NCBI GenBank assembly: GCA_951406725.2
Contig: OX597818.1
Location: 33,666,001 to 33,730,000 of the forward strand
Source: Octopus vulgaris
Lineage: Eukaryota
Direction: 5' to 3'
DNA length: 64,000 nt
Shown here: piece after piece, positions 27,130 through 62,235 of the stretch
How the letters are laid out: each line of letters begins with the position of its first letter
How positions within the stretch are numbered: the first letter of the stretch is position 1
The notes under the pieces: model-generated
What the model saw: only the letters and a program-made list of their open reading frames with translations
Databases searched by the model: none
What the model was told of the DNA's origin: nothing
Program-made: the position numbers and the translations under genes

Positions 27130-27979
27130 TTTTCAAATTAGGTTGGTAGGGATATGCAGTCCTAGCGGTTACCGTATTAGTTTTTACAGGTTATTAATAC
27201 TGGCTAACTTCAGTGAGCGTAGGAAAACTCCAGTTTGTTTATTTTACTATCCACAGAAGATTTTCACATCGGTAAATCCATATGTCTCTATAGGGACTTC
27301 CTGTTGTCGGTAGAGAAGAAGTAATAAATAAATGATAAGGAGATGAGAGATTTATATATCCAGAAATGGAATGACGTGGTTGACAACATCTCCTTATTTT
27401 ATATGTATATGTGTATATGTATATACACATACAGTAATTTTTTTTCCTCTGTCTTCCCATCTCGGGATCTTTCCTTCTCCTTTGTTTCCGACGAAGAGCT
27501 CCGCTCGAAACGTTAAACCCTCCTTCTTCCCTTCTTTCCTGAGCGTCCAATAATACTTTATTTGCTCCACGTCCTCGCGTTGCTGTGTTTTTATTTCGTG
27601 TTTTCTTGTTTGGATTAACTATACATATATATATATATATTATTATTTAAAGATATAATTTTGCGTAATTTAAGGGAAGATTAACTGTTGTTCCTAACTT
27701 GAAAAGCAACTACATACACTGTTGTAAATGCATGCTAGTAATGCTGTAGGAGTGCTTAATGATACTGCAATGATGATGTAGTTACTGTGGATGTTATTCT
27801 TATGGTTGCTGATCTAAAGATACTTAACGATGTTTACTTGTTTACCTGCCTGCTAATGATGTACTGCTGTCGTAATAACTTTTGCTGTTTTTATGGCATC
27901 TGATTCTTTCCATTTTTTTTTTCCGATCAGTGAAATTGATAGATTTTGATGCGGTGTTAAAAATTATACCAGCATTGCA

Positions 27980-36394: not shown

Positions 36395-36489
<95 letters not shown>

Positions 36490-36652
36490 GTTATCGCCAT
36501 ACTAATATGGCATTCTTATAAAAATAAGAAAAAAGCTGTCCGCTTATTAGCTCCATGAGGCCATCGCCTTAAGTTAGCTATTTGATACACAAACTGTATC
36601 CATATAACCTTCGAACAAGGGAGGTCAGTCGCTCCACACTACTTGACCGGCA

Positions 36653-36694
36653 GCTACAGATGCGTTTCGGAGTATTGCCCCTTTTCAATGCAGC
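36653..36694 (-). ncRNA. Type I hammerhead ribozyme, unit 1 (stem III palindrome mutated, AUC triplet)
   Basis: Minus strand reads GCUGCA UUGAAAA GGGG-CAAUA-CUCC GAAA CGCAUC UGUAGC. Confidence 0.7.
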
Positions 36695-37014
36695 GTAGCC
36701 AGCCAGTAGGTGTCGCTTCCGACAATCTCTGTTCGATGCTTTTATTTACCTAGTTTCGGTGGAATACATCCACTTGTTTTCAATAATAGAAATATTAAAA
36801 TAACTAAGTCTCTCTAAAAGAGAACAACGGCAGCGTTCCCGGAAAATAATAGTTATCGCCATACTAATATGGCATTCTTATAAAAATAAGAAAAAAGCTG
36901 TCCGCTTATTAGCTCCATGAGGCCATCGCCTTAAGTTAGCTATTTGATACACAAACTGTATCCATATAACCTTCGAACAAGGGAGGTCAGTCGCTCCACA
37001 CTACTTGACCGGCA

Positions 37015-37056
37015 GCTACAGACGCGTTTCGGAGTATTGCCCCTTTTCAATGCAGC
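37015..37056 (-). ncRNA. Minimal type I hammerhead ribozyme, U3-A8 core variant, unit 2
   Basis: Minus strand reads GCUGCA|UUGAAAA|GGGG CAAUA CUCC|GAAA CGCG UC^UGUAGC. Stem I is GCUGCA/UGUAGC, extended by UGGCUGGC/GCCGGUCA and CUAC/GUAG. Stem III is the palindrome ACGCGU and the cleavage triplet is GUC. Confidence 0.85.
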
Positions 37057-37376
37057 GTAGCCAGCCAGTAGGTGTCGCTTCCGACAATCTCTGTTCGATG
37101 GTTTTATTTACCTAGTTTCGGTGCAATACATCCACTTGTTTTCAATAATAGAAATATTAAAATAACTAAGTCTCTCTAAAAGAGAACAGCGGCAGCGTTC
37201 CCGGAAAATAATAGTTATCGCCATACTAATATGGCATTCTTATAAAAATAAGAAAAAAGCTGTCCGCTTATTAGCTCCATGAGGCCATCGCCTTAAGTTA
37301 GCTATTTGATACACAAACTGTATCCATATAACCTTCGAACAAGGGAGGTCAGTCGCTCCACACTACTTGAGCGGCA

Positions 37377-37418
37377 GCTACAGACGCGTTTCGGAGTATT
37401 GCCCCTTTTCAATGCAGC
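37377..37418 (-). ncRNA. Minimal type I hammerhead ribozyme, U3-A8 core variant, unit 3
   Basis: Core identical to 37015-37056. Confidence 0.85.
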
Positions 37419-38097
37419 GTAGCCAGCCAGTAGGTGTCGCTTCCGACAATCTCTGTTCGATGGTTTTATTTACCTAGTTTCGGTGGAATACATCCACTTG
37501 TTTTCAATAATAGAAATATTAAAATAACTAAGTCTCTCTAAAAGGGGCAATACTCCGAAACGCGTCTGTAGCTGCCGGTCAAGTAGTGTGGAGCGACTGA
37601 CCTCCCTTGTTCGAAGGTTATATGGATACAGTTTGTGTATCAAATAGCTAACTTAAGGCGATGGCCTCATGGAGCTAATAAGCGGACAGCTTTTTTCTTA
37701 TTTTTATAAGAATGCCATATTAGTATGGCGATAACTATTATTTTCCGGGAACGCTGCCGCTCTTCTCTTTTAGAGAGACTTAGTTATTTTAATATTTCTA
37801 TTATATATATATATATACATCTTATATATTTGTGGTTTTCGTCACTGTTTACAATTATCTTCAAAAAGATTTTTTTAATGTATCGTATAGATGTATTATT
37901 TGACGCTGAATCCGAATTTGATATTCATTTACTCCAGAAAAGTTTTACAGAAGTGTAACAGGTGTTCAAATTTTGAAAATTTTCAGTATTTTCAGCCCAT
38001 CAGAAAACAACAGGTTCGCTGCCTCTTCCATCATTGGAGCAGGGGCATCGGCATGTCAAAACATTAAACTAGCTACAGTAAACAGTGAATAAAAAGA

Positions 38098-41008: not shown

Positions 41009-41577
41009 CATACATACATACATACATACATACATACATACATACATACATACATACATACATACATACATACATACATACATACATACATACATACACT
41101 GTCTGTCTCCACCTGACAAGGTCAGGTGGAGACGGACAGTAAAAATGTTATGGTTTCGTCTGCGGACGACTGATGATGATGATGAGGTCTGTATTTATAT
41201 TTGAGTAAGTGTGTGTACGTCTGTGAGTGTGTATGTCTTTGCGGGTCAGTTTGTGTGTGCATGTATGAGTACATACATATGGAAATCTACTAAACTGCAA
41301 TATTTGTCTTCAGAAAGTTTCCCCTATAGACGTATCGTTTTAATAAGCACAGGAGTATATGTCTGGTAGGCATATATAATAGCTTCATCTCGAAATTAAA
41401 TTTGTTTATATGCTTTCATTGCCGATCATTCATTCCACTATTTCGGCATATTTTAGAAGCAGATATTTGCGTACCGCTACATTGTTCGCTTCTGTTAATA
41501 CAGTGCCAAAGAATTCAACACCGTCTCAATAGATAATTCTTTTGGATGAAATTTGTGGTAAAGTCCATTTAGATTGC

Positions 41578-42377
41578 TTATCGTCACTTAAACATGGCCG
41601 TTTCCCAAGATGACACCTCTTCCAGCTAGTTATTCGATGCAATCTGCACCCGATATATATTTCAAACCAGAAGGTATGGTTTCGACCTCTTTGTGGTCAT
41701 CCTGGGTAGTGGATACTCGTCCGGTAGAGATAGCAGTATTTCACTCCAGCACGGAATTTATAGAGAACAAGTGACACACACAGTCCAGATCTTACAACAA
41801 GCAAATTAGTTAGGTAGAATATCTCTATAAGAGATGAAATACAGAGAAGTGATGTTTATCGCCACTTAAAATGGCTTCTCCAAGAAACCGATGTTACTAC
41901 TACTTTTAACCTAAGGAGGGCGCCTTCTCCAGTTAGTTATTTGATGCAGTCTGCACCCGATACATATTGCAAATAGGGGAGTGAACTCTACCAACTTCCA
42001 GCCACGAGACCGCCAGACCGTACGGTTTCGACGACCTCTTTGTGGTCATAATTGGTAGTGGAAATAGCGCTAGTCAGCACCAGCTCGCAACAAGTGACAT
42101 ACGGTCACTGATCTTGCAATAAGCAATTTAGTTTGTTAGAAAAGAAATCAAAACCGTACGGTGGTCCGGCGGTCTCGTACCTGGGTGTTGGTAGTGGTGC
42201 AATCCCTTGCTTGCAGACTGCATCGAATAACCTGCTTGAGGAGGGATCCTCCTTGGGTTAAAAATAACAGTAACGTCAGTCTCCAGTGAACAGCCATGTT
42301 TAAGTGGCGATACGCATTACGTCTCAATATACTTACTGCTTCCATCTCTTATAGTGTTTCTCTAACTAGGTAATTTG
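41578..42377 (-). mobile_element. Older retrozyme/PLE-like element: two diverged tandem units plus an inverted partial unit, with degenerate HHRs
   Basis: Units start at ~41578 and ~41856, and the inverted copy spans 42148-42377. Minus-strand motifs are GACC-acaaaga-GGTC GAAA (intact at 41667-41712) and GAAA CCGTACGGTC (intact at 42010-42060). Confidence 0.75.
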
Positions 42378-43164
42378 TGTTTTAGATTGTTTCCTAAATA
42401 AGTAGCGAGCTTCTGATGGCAATAATACAACGGAAAACTAATGTCTTCCAATACCATGCACGATCAAGTCTTCTATTGCGTTCACTCATAGTTACAATCA
42501 GCTTATATTTTTACCAGCTTTTGACATGTACATGAAAACATATCTTTTGATTACTCACTGCAATTCCCAGACCCCGCAAACTTTTTCATTCAGGTGTCAT
42601 AATATTCTCCGGATACATCTACACCGATTGTGCTGCTATTTATGCACTGATATTGCACAGCTAGCTACTTGTAATTTTTTTCTAATATTTCAGCTAAAAC
42701 ATTTCTTGTGACTTTTACGTAATTGAAAAGTTAGCATTTTTCCTGTAATTTCTAATGTGCTTTTCGTCTTTGTACAGAAAAATTTTACATTGTAAATTTA
42801 TACAAGTTTCTTGCTTTGGATATGGAATACATTTTAACATTAATCACAAAAATATGCGGTTTAAATGAGGAATATTAACAATTGTTTCTGCCGAAATGCA
42901 AATGAAATTGTCTTCTACAGTTGAATACCTGTATTTGAATTTATAATACTATGTCCTTATTTCTCGACATAATTGAAGACACTTATTATCAAAAGCATGC
43001 TCGGTATAAGCATTGTGTATCTAGGACAATATTAGCTAAACAGTCATCCCCATTCAAGATGTTATGGTGATATATAAAGATAATTTTGCTGCAGATCAAG
43101 CTGCCATACAGATCATTCAATGGCTGGAAGTAGGCGATATTCTAACCTCATATAACTATAATTT

Positions 43165-44186: not shown

Positions 44187-44227
<41 letters not shown>

Positions 44228-44245
44228 ATTTTATTATATAGAAGG

Positions 44246-44296
44246 AGCTTCTACAGGACTAGTACTGTTTCATTCAAGAGAAATCTTCAGGAAGCT
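44246..44296 (-). ncRNA. Type I hammerhead ribozyme (left palindrome end)
   Basis: Minus strand reads AGCUUC|CUGAAGA|uUUC-ucuu-GAAu|GAA ACAG-uacuaguc-CUGU A^GAAGCU. The core is canonical, stem I is 6 bp, stem III is 4 bp and the triplet is GUA. The first stem II pair is a U-U mismatch. Confidence 0.8.
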
Positions 44297-44703
44297 ATTT
44301 AACAAGAATCGTATTAGCATTTATACATTTAGAGGAGTGGTGGTGGGGGACTTTTTGGGGGTAGGCATAGCGCAAAATATCATACTTGGGGGAGTGGTCA
44401 AGGTAATAAAAAAATAAAAAAAAATAAAAAATAAAAAAATAAAAAAATAAAATAATAAAAAGATAAAATAAAAGAATAAAAATAAAAAATATAAAAAATA
44501 TAAAAAATAAAAAATATAAAAAATATAAAAAATATATATAAATATATAAAAAAATATATATATAAAAATATATATATAAAATATATATATAAAAAAAGGG
44601 GGGATAGAGTTATAGGTAAATAAGGAGATTCTCACTTATACCTATACACACATGTATACGTATCTACACACACATACGCACATACACATATATCTACACA
44701 CAC

Positions 44704-44751
<48 letters not shown>

Positions 44752-45210
44752 CCTACACATACACACATACATACATACAAATATACGTATACATACATAT
44801 ATATACAATCCAATACAGGCCCATTCCCTAATTTTAATTTTATTATCTTCATTTATTACTTTTGTTATCTTTGATCGCTAGGGCTAAGAATCCTGGCAAT
44901 AGCTGCTTGTCCGTTTGTCTGTCTACTAGAAGGCAAGTACTCATTCCCGCACGCACACTCATTAGCACGTACATTCACCCATTCGTACACTCATACACAT
45001 ACACGTACGCACGCGTTATATTCATACATACAAACATCTACATACGTTCACGTATATACACATACGTACTCGTACCTACAGATTCGTGTCTACACTTTAG
45101 GAGGCTAGTCTATACATATACACCAATAAATATACATATATATATATATATATATACCCGCATATACATACACACACACACATATATACTCCTACATACA
45201 GATACATACC

Positions 45211-45252
<42 letters not shown>

Positions 45253-45462
45253 TACATATATATATATACATATATACACATACCTACACATACACACATA
45301 CACATACACACACATACATACACATATATATACATACACAAACATATATACACACACATATATATACATACACACATACACACATACATACGTATACATA
45401 CATACATACATCTATACATCCATACTTACATGCATTTATACGCATACACACACCCATCTATA

Positions 45463-45499
<37 letters not shown>

Positions 45500-45790
45500 T
45501 CACACATACATATACAAATCTACGCACACACATACATACATACACGTATACTCATACACGCACATACACATATACATGCGTACCCATACACGTGCACACA
45601 CGCACGCGCATCCATATAAATACACACACACACATATATATATACACACATATATATACACGTGTGCAAGCATACATACATACTCATACGCGCACACATA
45701 CTTACAAATACATATATGCACACACTTACACACATATATATACATACACATATACATGCATACATACATATATGCATACATACACACACG

Positions 45791-45844
<54 letters not shown>

Positions 45845-46466
45845 TACATAGACATACATACACATACATACACATACACATACGTACACACACATATACA
45901 CATATATATATATACATATATATATATATACACATATACACGCATACATATATACACATATACATACATATACATACACACACACATACATATATACATA
46001 TACACTGATACACATACCCATACATACACATGCATATACTTATATTACTACATACTCACATATATAGACATATATACATATACACACATACACATATACA
46101 TGTACATACACATACGCATGCATATATATATATATATACACACACATATATACACATACATATATATATATATATATATAACATACGTACACACACACAC
46201 ACACATACATATACACATATACATGTATACATACGCAAAAATGATACGCATATATACACATACACACACACAGACAGATGCATATACATACATATATATA
46301 TATATATAACTACATATCTATATAAATACAAACATAATACACATATACACACACATATATATACATTCATGCATATACATATACAAGTATACATACACAA
46401 ACATACACACACACGCGCACACATACATATACACACACACATATACAAATACATACATACACACAT

Positions 46467-46505
<39 letters not shown>

Positions 46506-46901
46506 CATACATGTACACATATACATATGTATATATATATCAACAAGGGAGGGTAAAGTTAATTAGTTATTAATCAATTTCATCAAGTGTTCAGTATGTA
46601 AAGGGACCATTATTATTTTGAGTAAACAATGTTAGAGGAAAAAAATTCTCTAAGTAGTGGAAGAGGCTAAAAAACTTTATTGGCTGCTATTTCTAGAAAG
46701 TTTAGTATGTGGCAAAGTAATTTATTTTATTTTCCTAAGCCCTAATTATATAATATTTTATACATACATACACATACATAAGCACATACATTTACACATA
46801 CATATGCATATACATATATACACATATACATACAAACACATATACACATATACACACACACACACATACAAGCACATACATATATATATACATATATATA
46901 C

Positions 46902-46971
<70 letters not shown>

Positions 46972-47336
46972 GCTTGTATGTGTGTGTGTATATGTGTATA
47001 TGTGTTTGTATGTATATGTGTATATATGTATATGCATATGTATGTGTAAATGTATGTGCTTATGTATGTGTATGTATGTATAAAATATTATATAATTAGG
47101 GCTTAGGAAAATAAAATAAATTACTTTGCCACATACTAAACTTTCTAGAAATAGCAGCCAATAAAGTTTTTTAGCCTCTTCCACTACTTAGAGAATTTTT
47201 TTCCCTCTAACATTGTTTACTCAAAATAATAATGGTCCCTTTACATACTGAACACTTGATGAAATTGATTAATAACTAATTAACTTTACCCTCCCTTGTT
47301 GATATATATATACATATGTATGTGTGTACATGTATG

Positions 47337-47369
<33 letters not shown>

Positions 47370-47890
47370 ATGTGTGTATGTATGTATTTGTATATGTGTG
47401 TGTGTATATGTATGTGTGCGTGTGTGTGTATGTTTGTGTATGTATACTTGTATATGTATATGCATGAATGTATATATATGTGTGTGTATATGTGTATTAT
47501 GTTTGTATTTATATAGATATGTAGTTTATATATATATATATATGTATGTATATGCATCTGTCTGTGTGTGTGTATGTGTATATATGCGTATCATTTTTGC
47601 GTATGTATACATGTATATGTGTATATGTATGTGTGTGTGTGTGTGTACGTATGTATATATATATATATATATATGTGTGTATATATGTGTGTGTATATAT
47701 ATATATATGCATGCGTATGTGTATGTACATGTATATATGTATGTGTGTATATGTATATATGTCTATATATGTGAGTATGTAGTAATATAAGTATATGCAT
47801 GTGTATGTATGGGTATGTGTATCAGTGTATATGTATATATGTATGTGTGTGTGTATGTATATGTATGTATATGTGTATATATGTATGCGT

Positions 47891-47932
<42 letters not shown>

Positions 47933-48019
47933 ATATGTGTGTGTGTGTGTATGTGTATGTATGTGTATGTATGTCTATGTATGTATATGTGTGTGTATAT
48001 ATATATATGTGTGTGTGTG

Positions 48020-48059
<40 letters not shown>

Positions 48060-48571
48060 CATATATGTATGTATGCATGTATATGTGTATGTATATATAT
48101 GTGTGTAAGTGTGTGCATATATGTATTTGTAAGTATGTGTGCGCGTATGAGTATGTATGTATGCTTGCACACGTGTATATATATGTGTGTATATATATGT
48201 GTGTGTGTGTATTTATATGGATGCGCGTGCGTGTGTGCACGTGTATGGGTACGCATGTATATGTGTATGTGCGTGTATGAGTATACGTGTATGTATGTAT
48301 GTGTGTGCGTAGATTTGTATATGTATGTGTGAGTGTGTATATATATATATATATATATATACATATATATAGATGGGTGTGTGTATGCGTATAAATGCAT
48401 GTAAGTATGGATGTATAGATGTATGTATGTATACGTATGTATGTGTGTATGTGTGTATGTATATATATGTGTGTGTATATATGTTTGTGTATGTATATAT
48501 ATGTGTATGTATGTGTGTGTATGTGTATGTGTGTATGTGTAGGTATGTGTATATATGTATATATATATGTA

Positions 48572-48613
<42 letters not shown>

Positions 48614-49072
48614 TATGTATCTGTATGTAGGAGTATATATATGTGTGTGTGTGTATGTATATGCGGGTATATATATATATATATATATGTATATTTATTG
48701 GTGTATATGTATAGACTAGCCTCCTAAAGTGTAGACACGAATCTGTAGGTACGAGTACGTATGTGTATATACGTGAACGTATGTAGATGTTTGTATGTAT
48801 GAATATAACGCGTGCGTACGTGTATGTGTATGAGTGTACGAATGGGTGAATGTACGTGCTAATGAGTGTGCGTGCGGGAATGAGTACTTGCCTTCTAGTA
48901 GACAGACAAACGGACAAGCAGCTATTGCCAGGATTCTTAGCCCTAGCGATCAAAGATAACAAAAGTAATAAATGAAGATAATAAAATTAAAATTAGGGAA
49001 TGGGCCTGTATTGGATTGTATATATATGTATGTATACGTATATTTGTATGTATGTATGTGTGTATGTGTAGG

Positions 49073-49127
<55 letters not shown>

Positions 49128-49520
49128 AGATATATGTGTATGTGCGTATGTGTGTGTAGATACGTATACATGTGTGTATAGGTATAAGTGAGAATCTCCT
49201 TATTTACCTATAACTCTATCCCCCCTTTTTTTATATATATATTTTATATATATATTTTTATATATATATTTTTATATATATATATTTTTTTTTATATTTT
49301 TTATATTTTTTATTTTTTATATTTTTTATATTTTTTATTTTTATTCTTTATTTTATCTTTTTATTATTTTATTTTTTTATTTTTTTATTTTTTATTTTTT
49401 TATTTTTTTATTACCTTGACCACTCCCCCAAGTATGATATTTTGCGCTATGCCTACCCCCAAAAAGTCCCCCACCACCACTCCTCTAAATGTATAAATGC
49501 TAATACGATTCTTGTTAAAT

Positions 49521-49571
49521 AGCTTCCTGAAGATTTCTCTTGAATGAAAAAGTACTAGTCCTGTAGAAGCT
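49521..49571 (+). ncRNA. Type I hammerhead ribozyme (right palindrome end; C>A in stem III)
   Basis: agcttc CTGAAGA tttctcttgaat GAAA aagtactagtcctgta gaagct, followed by aataaa. Confidence 0.7.
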
Positions 49572-49637
49572 CCTTCTATATAATAAATTAATTTTACTCT
49601 GCTATGTATTGAGTACCTTACTTACTGTGGTTAACCC

Positions 49638-61170: not shown

Positions 61171-61288
61171 ATGCTTACAGCACCTAGGTTTCCCAAGCGG
61201 TCACCCATCTAAGTACTTGCTAGGCTCGGCTTTGCTTAACTTAGGCGATCGGACAAAAACGGTGCATTCAACGTGATATGGCCGTACA
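61171..61288 (-). pseudogene. 5S rRNA pseudogene (isolated, diverged)
   Basis: The minus strand tacggccatatcacgttgaatgcaccg...gtccgatc...aagttaagc...agtacttagatgggtgaccgcttgggaaacc..ggtgctgtaagc aligns with metazoan 5S over ~118 nt with multiple substitutions. There is no oligo-T terminator or tandem array. Confidence 0.88.
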
Positions 61289-62235
61289 TATAAATGCATG
61301 TATATGTATGTGTGTGTATGTGCATGCGTGTGTGTGTGGATGTTCTTGTGTGTATGAACGCGCAAGTGTATTTGTGTAACCGTTCCTGCCTAAAAAGATG
61401 TTCTTGCTGTATGTATTACTATCGTGACAACAATAAAAAAAAATTGTTACTATTTCATCCATAGCAGGAGCAACGGGTTGAGTTACTGAGCACTCTCAGG
61501 GGTTAAATATATTGCTAAGATGCTCTAAACTTGAAATGCCAAAACTGAACTATGTATTTTTACTATATAACCTCTAGAATGTAAGTCAGCGATCCGATAT
61601 ATCAAATACAGCTTATAGAGTCCTCTGAAGGTAATTTTTATTGCCCATACTAAATCAGTTATTATTTGTCGTTGATATATAAAGTAATTTCTTCTTACGT
61701 TTTATTTTTATTCCAACAATTGCTACATATATATTGGGAGGCTAAAAGTGTAACTATCTTAAATTCAACAGCGGCTGACGTGGTGATAGATCACCGAAAT
61801 TTTTAGATAGGCAATAAATTAGCAAGTAGATATCCAATATTTTGTACATTGACTTATATCTTCAGCTTAAAGAATAACTGATAAGAGAAGATGATATTTA
61901 GAAACTCTTAATTAACCCGCCATAGATATTCATATGTGTCTGTGTGTGTGTGCGTATTTGAGTGTTTCAAGTTGAAAGGATGTTAGATTCTTTATGAAAT
62001 AACATTCCCCAAAAAGAAGCAAGTACTAGAGGCGATTCGATTTCCAGTTGGTGTCATAACGTAATCACTGTAAAATGATGAACACAGGTAAAAGAAAATT
62101 AATAATAACAAAGACAATTTTAAGGAATGTGGGTAACTGGAATACTTACCTACTCGTATTTGACAGGTATAATTTTCGATCGGCCAAGAGAAATGGAAGG
62201 TAAGTTGACCTGGGCGGTATTTCTACTCAGAACGC

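Follow-up and report, generated by a model that had tools for sequence, protein, structure and literature searches.

The 64-kb window analysed here (the whole stretch of DNA, from a microsatellite-rich octopus genome of 2.8 Gb in 227 contigs) contains a decayed repeat with remnants of a hammerhead ribozyme. The question it raises is what this repeat is, by which machinery it was inserted, and what the blocks are that it shares with a younger element outside the ribozyme. We consider it probable that the locus is a decayed two-armed insertion of a dispersed 360-bp non-coding hammerhead repeat, likely written by a Penelope-like reverse transcriptase (RT) and endonuclease. This reading draws on the family itself, its consensus motif, the target duplication, the two 3′ ends, the head-to-head arms and the hairpins that covary in the sister families.

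The insertion and its 360-bp family

Inspection of the locus showed a single insertion at 41577-42380, consisting of about 1.9 minus-strand units followed by 0.7 of an inverted unit and flanked by 9-bp target duplications, both reading TTTAGATTG (Table 1). An earlier note on this DNA had described two diverged tandem units, a minus-strand hammerhead and then an inverted copy, and this arrangement is present in the window; its limits, 41578 and 42377, were roughly right, and the true ends are set by the flanking TTTAGATTG. The left arm spans unit position 251, through one complete unit, to about 206-209, and agrees with the family consensus at 88.4% (496 of 561 aligned letters). Its 3′ end, called site A hereafter, lies directly after the GCCA/UGGC hairpin. 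The agreement of the right arm is 84.8% (190/224). In copy 1 of the hairpin cluster, the model match extends into the flank, to 41535.

Table 1. Features of the locus and of the young sister element, numbered along the window
Feature	Position	Strand	Remarks
Young sister element	36484-37804		2.9 units of 362 bp and an inverted arm, in (TA)n
Left target-site duplication TTTAGATTG	41568..41576	+	
Left arm, ~1.9 head-to-tail units	41577..42143	-	5′-truncated at unit position 251; internal deletions
Conserved hairpin cluster, copy 1	41577..41654	-	40.5 bits; partly deleted, cut at site A
Decayed type I hammerhead, copy 1	41666..41712	-	core CCCAGGA; damage in palindrome and 3′ stem I
Conserved hairpin cluster, copy 2	41819..41961	-	98.4 bits, model R1
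Decayed type I hammerhead, copy 2	42010..42061	-	core CCAATTA; 3-nt duplication before GAAA
Right (inverted) arm	42151..42380	+	unit positions 31 to ~275; ends at site B
Conserved hairpin cluster, inverted arm	42206..42360	+	105.9 bits
GCCA/UGGC hairpin, inverted arm	42293-42308	+	
Right target-site duplication TTTAGATTG	42381..42389	+	

A contig from a second organism (run X4, by its coding; depth 5.6) covers 42037-42600, that is, the arm junction and unique flank, with 34 differing letters and 5 gaps relative to the window. Provided that the coding of the run is right, this single contig suggests that the insertion predates the split of the two organisms.

The insertion belongs to a family. 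Unit 2 as query returned 52 matches, with 40 of 487 candidates scored, a second query for the old family gave 1944 candidates, and a consensus built from 35 segments closes into a 360-bp unit. The copies are dispersed on many contigs; exact 20- and 30-mers gave 8, 3 and 6 matches, from which the family can roughly be put at a few hundred copies, probably. Non-CpG substitution in 91 arms at 58 loci was 11.0% (2635/23991), and because these are the best-scoring copies, the average divergence of the old family is probably above this value.

The young 362-bp element carries the core UUGAAAA, and its palindrome is ACGCGU, with ACGCAU in one copy; it terminates at sites A and B and has the same hairpin cluster. 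The top copies of its family are 99-100% identical to one another. Both non-ribozyme blocks quoted in the earlier note match the 362-bp unit. Against dinucleotide shuffles, the similarity to this unit was significant for unit 2 (score 50; shuffles 23.5 ± 3.7) and unit 1 (score 40), with 0 of 500 shuffles as high in each case, and was not so for the inverted arm alone (139/500). The two consensus sequences scored 78 against 25.1 ± 3.7 for shuffles (0/500), with 51% identity, and the old family is a sister of the young one, not its parent. The notion of an old and diversified relative, alike in architecture and different in its palindrome, with non-ribozyme blocks conserved, thus holds. Searches with block patterns brought more families to light, and gave 5239 matches for one pattern, with none for its reversed control, and 785 and 4840 for the others. 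Three clades were distinguished, namely the young family with its variants, the old family and clade C (352-358 bp), with 47-57% identity between clades. One locus (L201, G000:C2:14086636 onward) is an array of at least nine clade C units of 352 bp; its core, CCGAUGA, is the second case of U4C in the clan.

Other structures were recorded in the window. A 19-bp near-perfect hairpin with a 3-nt loop was seen by eye at 41099-41139, directly after an (ATAC)n run. At 44226-49591, about 5.4 kb of mostly microsatellite DNA folds back on itself around 46920/46921; its arms reach 100% complementarity over 482 nt, and it is either a recent palindrome or an assembly artefact. On the minus strand, 61172-61289 gives a full-length 5S rRNA match (75.3 bits), which may be a gene, a pseudogene or a 5S-derived repeat.

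The hammerhead motif

The old-family consensus holds a complete type I hammerhead. Stem I has 6 bp and stem II 4 bp, the latter closed by a 7-nt loop; the core is CCGAGGA, followed by an extra U, and GAAA, the 10-nt palindrome ACCGUACGGU and C17 complete the motif. Rfam reported no hammerhead at either the old insertion or the young 362-bp element, and the motif was established by a descriptor and by alignment. Stem II GACC/GGTC, GAAA, palindrome ACCGTACGGT and GTC triplet, as listed in the earlier note, can all be seen in the window; the palindrome is intact in copy 2 (42017-42026), where the cut is predicted after 42016. The CUGANGA segment had been called eroded. It is indeed altered, by substitutions and not by loss: the core of unit 1 is one change from that of the family, and loss by deletion was rejected. 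Judging from their two cores, both hammerheads of the decayed window copy are probably dead. A further minimal hammerhead-like motif lies at about 27483-27520 on the plus strand, with the core CCGACGA, and the same motif occurs in locus L086.

Among the copies, the core letters were conserved as follows: C3 (61/66), G5 (57/66), A6 (61/67), G8 (54/68), A9 (66/69) and the extra U (70/70). Position 4 was C in 41 of 66 copies and T in 21. The majority core is CCGAGGA, the U4C variant, and the canonical form CUGAGGA is in the minority, so the family passes only in part the earlier note's refuting check for a CUGANGA or UUGANAA core in the consensus. At the CpG of position 4, C>T changes outnumbered G>A changes (21 versus 6, p = 0.006), more lopsidedly than at the other 14 CpGs. 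C4 and U4 each occur in both stem II variants, so CpG decay from C4 would explain much of U4, a letter that might otherwise mark a real subfamily. U4C is known as a natural variant that lowers activity in vitro and still supports viroid infectivity, according to the accessible text of PMC3088659. The core was kept in 17 of 56 copies, and core and stems together in 9 of 56.

Stem II changes in pairs among copies (GACC/GGTC, GAGC/GCTC, GGGC/GCCC). Helix III is palindromic in all seven variants: ACGCGU, ACAUGU, ACUAGU, ACUCGAGU, AUCAUGAU, ACAUGCAUGU and ACCGUACGGU. The calculated duplex energy of the palindrome is -16.4 kcal/mol in the old family versus -7.5 in the young one and -10.7 in clade C. 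If dimers work, turnover of this palindrome would insulate the ribozymes of the families from one another. The isolated consensus motif favors a non-active fold (-18.3 vs. -13.1 kcal/mol). The circular consensus folded with a z-score of -8.0 (40 shuffles), and its opposite strand with -6.4; in the predicted circle, the two monomer ends pair together as a long rod. Like the PAc element, the old consensus has an ATG where stem II begins; read by eye, it opens no more than a short frame, and the young clade lacks this ATG. A Penelope-like family at L266 (about 2000-2050) with relatives L267-L294 has a hammerhead with the core AUGAAUA (A3-U8 pair) and the palindrome ACCGGU.

The inverted copy had also been said to begin at the hammerhead. 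In the window its start is indeed unit position 31, and the predicted cut follows 13 nt downstream. As a rule for the family this was rejected, for the junction-side starts are spread over the unit, and those inside the hammerhead numbered 12 of 50 arms in the old family (p = 0.033 in a query-biased sample). The corresponding figures were 7/56 for the young clade and 7/52 for clade C.

Fixed ends and the shared hairpin cluster

The outer ends of the arms are concentrated at two positions. Among the 91 old-family arms, 28 ended at site A and 26 at site B (54/91), compared with expected numbers of 4.6 and 3.8. Head-to-head pairs combined A with B in 25 of 28 cases in the young clade, 18 of 26 in clade C and 10 of 25 in the old family; A+A pairs were found in no clade, and B+B pairs twice, in the young clade. 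The pair in the window is itself A+B, though it was scored as 'Bx' when the alignment broke at a deletion. The 15 of 25 old pairs without A+B speak against the explanation favored here. In 5 of 25 old pairs, the two ends had a non-simple word of at least 7 letters in common, which was so for 33 of 600 mismatched controls.

All three clades have site A about 10-16 nt beyond the GCCA/UGGC hairpin, with more scatter in the old one, and site B lies about 70-79 nt from this hairpin in two clades and 55-64 nt in clade C. Partial tandems, an inverted 5′-truncated copy and a tail at one end are described as a hallmark of Penelope-like elements (PLEs) in the accessible parts of PMC8557442 and PMC3846280, and the tail is explained by two internal positions at which RT starts, with a protein able to cut both strands (PMC11167929, accessible text). 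The position of site A matches this Penelope 'tail' signature.

These data also bear on the view that the locus is a satellite or palindromic repeat made by local duplication, which resembles a hammerhead and the 362-bp unit by chance. The non-canonical cores in the window and the silence of Rfam would fit it; the dispersed copies, target duplication, fixed ends, significant similarity to the young family and complete consensus motif refute it, and we give it almost no credence.

The covariation analysis of the shared blocks that the earlier note had proposed revealed helices with compensatory changes across the three clades. With 20 real copies picked from the families of these clades, RNAalifold gave four helices of 21 pairs, 7 of them with double changes. 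In a 27-pair structure, 92.2% of the cells pair, versus 35-46% when the structure is slid, and double changes occur in 50 cells compared with 21.4 after shuffling (0/500). The number of pairs with a double change (206/500) and the number of pair types (492/500) were no better than in shuffles, so that two of five covariation measures failed; the sequences represent only three main clades, and their relatedness limits such tests. Helix 5 is weak (79% paired) and was not counted, nor were two more hairpins that could not be aligned in register. Eight representatives folded at -32.2 versus -3.4 ± 2.0 for column shuffles (0/500), and the tree and pair table imply, by eye, about 10 independent double changes. 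G-U cells exceeded A-C cells (34 versus 12), favoring the hammerhead strand.

A better control arose by chance when the hairpin model picked up two further families from outside its training set, L271 (44.0 bits) and L282 (49.9 bits). In both, the helices persist although their letters differ, and the hammerheads have palindromes of their own. They lie on the minus strand at L271:700-1240 and L282:2400-2890, have the palindromes ACAUGCAUGU and AUCAUGAU, respectively, and are more distant families of the clan. Consensus patterns of the RNA polymerase III A and B boxes had no match in five units on either strand. Taken at the level of sequence, the compensatory changes, the helices of L271 and L282, the G-U excess and the lack of a box match in those units indicate that these blocks are structured RNA rather than a promoter motif in DNA.

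The earlier note had left the blocks as promoter or RT-recognition sites. The compensatory helices, the G-U strand bias, the missing A/B box and the fixed end beside the GCCA/UGGC hairpin favor RT recognition and disfavor a promoter. One may still ask whether the blocks are DNA promoter elements, or meet needs of a circular RNA such as stability or recognition by a ligase or polymerase, unrelated to the start of reverse transcription and leaving the rest of the account unchanged. Hairpins are compatible with any RNA function, and the distance of site B from the GCCA/UGGC hairpin varies among the clades; against this stand the compensatory changes, which speak against a DNA motif, the absence of an A or B box match, and a nearly constant distance from hairpin to site A in three clades that are about 50% identical. 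We regard this alternative as rather doubtful.

A bolder interpretation is that these repeats form a self-standing retrozyme clan of at least five lineages, about 50% identical and selected as RNA, whose multi-hairpin domain is a parasite-specific handle that places the Penelope RT at two starts in trans and is not a copy of a PLE terminal repeat. Ribozyme core, dimer palindrome and primary sequence would then have turned over while one multi-hairpin domain was kept. We put this forward tentatively, as a possibility less probable than its negation.

Penelope-like elements and known retrozymes

RT and GIY-YIG elements that carry hammerheads and (TA)n ends are abundant in the genome (6136 GIY-YIG candidates, 150 scored), and a 781-aa ORF carries both RVT_1 and GIY-YIG. 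The family with this ORF has its own hammerhead and then (TA)n ends at two sites about 35 nt apart, and a second PLE family, of the L090 type, likewise has its own hammerheads and ends; neither has the hairpin cluster. In 39 + 33 PLE loci, of the 6136 candidates, no hairpin cluster was found in the PLE's own terminal repeat; the cluster hits at those loci are separate insertions. PLE 3′ ends showed no significant similarity to retrozyme units, with 21 of 500 shuffles as high in the best case. Head-to-head pairs 2.9-6.6 kb apart had no PLE-type ORF between them. When three PLE proteins were searched by tblastn, no RT or GIY-YIG match was found in the 64-kb window, and six loci matched among 224 loci and the window, of which only one site (L014 = L064 = L250) is of the old family.

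Two retrozyme copies are fused to PLE coding fragments. At L014:1440-2265 (G000:C2, near 94349300), an old-family arm stands head-to-head with a GIY-YIG and 3′-UTR fragment of an L090-type PLE, and each outer end is bordered by microsatellite. The PLE arm breaks off some 100 nt short of the hammerhead of its own PLE family, and for this reason the chimera may be a nested or deleted insertion. At L162:888-1740, a clade C element is immediately preceded on its own strand by a piece of PLE reverse transcriptase, an arrangement that a template switch would produce.

It could be argued that the units are pLTR fragments of an autonomous PLE, left by 5′ truncation, and not an independent family. Their tandem and inverted structure with a tail is that of PLEs (PMC8557442), Xenopus retrozymes match PLE pLTRs (bioRxiv 10.64898/2026.07.22.740005), and an additional nucleotide separating A9 from stem II characterises PLE hammerheads (PMC4209133), all as given in the accessible text of these sources; moreover, the PLE loci sampled are a small share of all. 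However, successive units abut directly, in the window as well as in other copies, the single old-family site with a PLE match among the 224 loci and the window is head-to-head and not upstream of the repeat, and the monomer ends pair as a long rod in the predicted circle. We therefore hold this origin to be improbable.

Our preferred reading remains insertion of a dispersed hammerhead repeat by Penelope-like enzymes, and its steps are inferred from the accessible parts of PMC7229834 and PMC11167929. Read-through transcription would yield a multimeric transcript, which the hammerhead would cut either as a monomer, with 3 bp in helix III, or as a dimer held together by the 10-nt palindrome. The cut unit would be ligated into a rod-like circle. 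The Penelope protein would bind to the hairpins of the cluster and nick both strands of AT-rich DNA at points about 9 bp from each other. From each nick, cDNA would be primed at the internal RNA sites A and B, the first about 10-16 nt after the GCCA/UGGC hairpin and the second about 60 nt beyond A. Joining of the two cDNAs at their unfinished ends would give the two-armed insertion. Decay since then has probably left this copy dead. Arms that cross the cut site must have been copied from either a circle or an uncut multimer, and the data fit both; insertion of the PAc element is described in the accessible text of PMC11167929 as having no need for hammerhead cleavage.

When compared with described classes, the old family shares with metazoan non-LTR retrozymes a short non-coding head-to-tail unit (360 bp), dispersed copies and target duplications of more than 4 bp, and its consensus has a hammerhead per unit, with a U4C majority core and decayed copies in the window. 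Two fixed 3′ ends, giving a tail, and an inverted 5′-truncated copy are as expected of Penelope mobilisation. An ORF with RT and GIY-YIG, as in an autonomous PLE, was not found in the window. For a tRNA- or 5S-type SINE, Rfam gave no such family at the locus, and the pol III A and B box patterns had no match in the five units. By these sequence-level tests, the insertion is a member of the metazoan non-LTR retrozymes, likely moved by Penelope-like elements.

The likeness to the metazoan non-LTR retrozymes of Cervera and de la Pena (2020; PMC7229834), as far as its accessible text describes them, includes the 150-450 bp non-coding head-to-tail unit (350-390 bp in mussel), a type I hammerhead per unit, a GC content below 50%, a target duplication of more than 4 bp, a highly self-paired predicted circle and coexisting PLEs. 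Cleavage and circular RNA have been demonstrated for those retrozymes and are predicted for the old family. It differs from that description in its U4C majority core, its 10-nt palindromic helix III, its two-armed A+B insertions and the covarying non-ribozyme domain common to several families. With PLEs, as characterised in the accessible portions of PMC8557442, PMC3846280, PMC11167929 and PMC4209133, it has in common the partial tandem with an inverted 5′-truncated copy, the optional tail at one end, target duplications of 8-10 bp and AT-rich or microsatellite targets, and with PLE hammerheads (PMC4209133) the palindromic helix III and the extra nucleotide after A9. The U3-A8 core of PLE hammerheads is found in the young sister. 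Unlike PLEs, the old family has no ORF, and its tail, at about 60 nt (in clade C about 45), is longer than their 30-40 nt; its stems I and II, of 6 and 4 bp, are of canonical size, unlike those of the minimal PLE hammerheads so described.

Mobilisation by PLEs and a pLTR origin of animal retrozymes have been proposed by Li, Clavereau and Pollet (2026; bioRxiv 10.64898/2026.07.22.740005), in whose accessible text nearly every retrozyme family is sister to a PLE pLTR. In the octopus clan, at least three clades share the hairpin domain with each other, and it was not found in the sampled PLE termini. PLEs are named as candidates for RT recognition of animal retrozymes in the accessible text of PMC7229834, and the RT mechanism is still to be worked out according to that of the bioRxiv report. 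In the literature covered, with most subscription papers and the repeat databases outside its scope, we found neither a description of the old 360-bp family nor a non-ribozyme domain that covaries between retrozyme families.

The value of this locus is comparative. Because the old family is far from its young sisters, the parts of a retrozyme that are under selection besides the ribozyme become visible. The covarying hairpins and the two mapped start sites offer a concrete substrate, with mutations to make in it, for an in vitro assay of the kind in the accessible text of PMC11167929. If the tentative reading of a self-standing clan is true, its hairpin domain would be a recognition element for PLE-primed reverse transcription, defined by covariation and usable to insert a chosen RNA.
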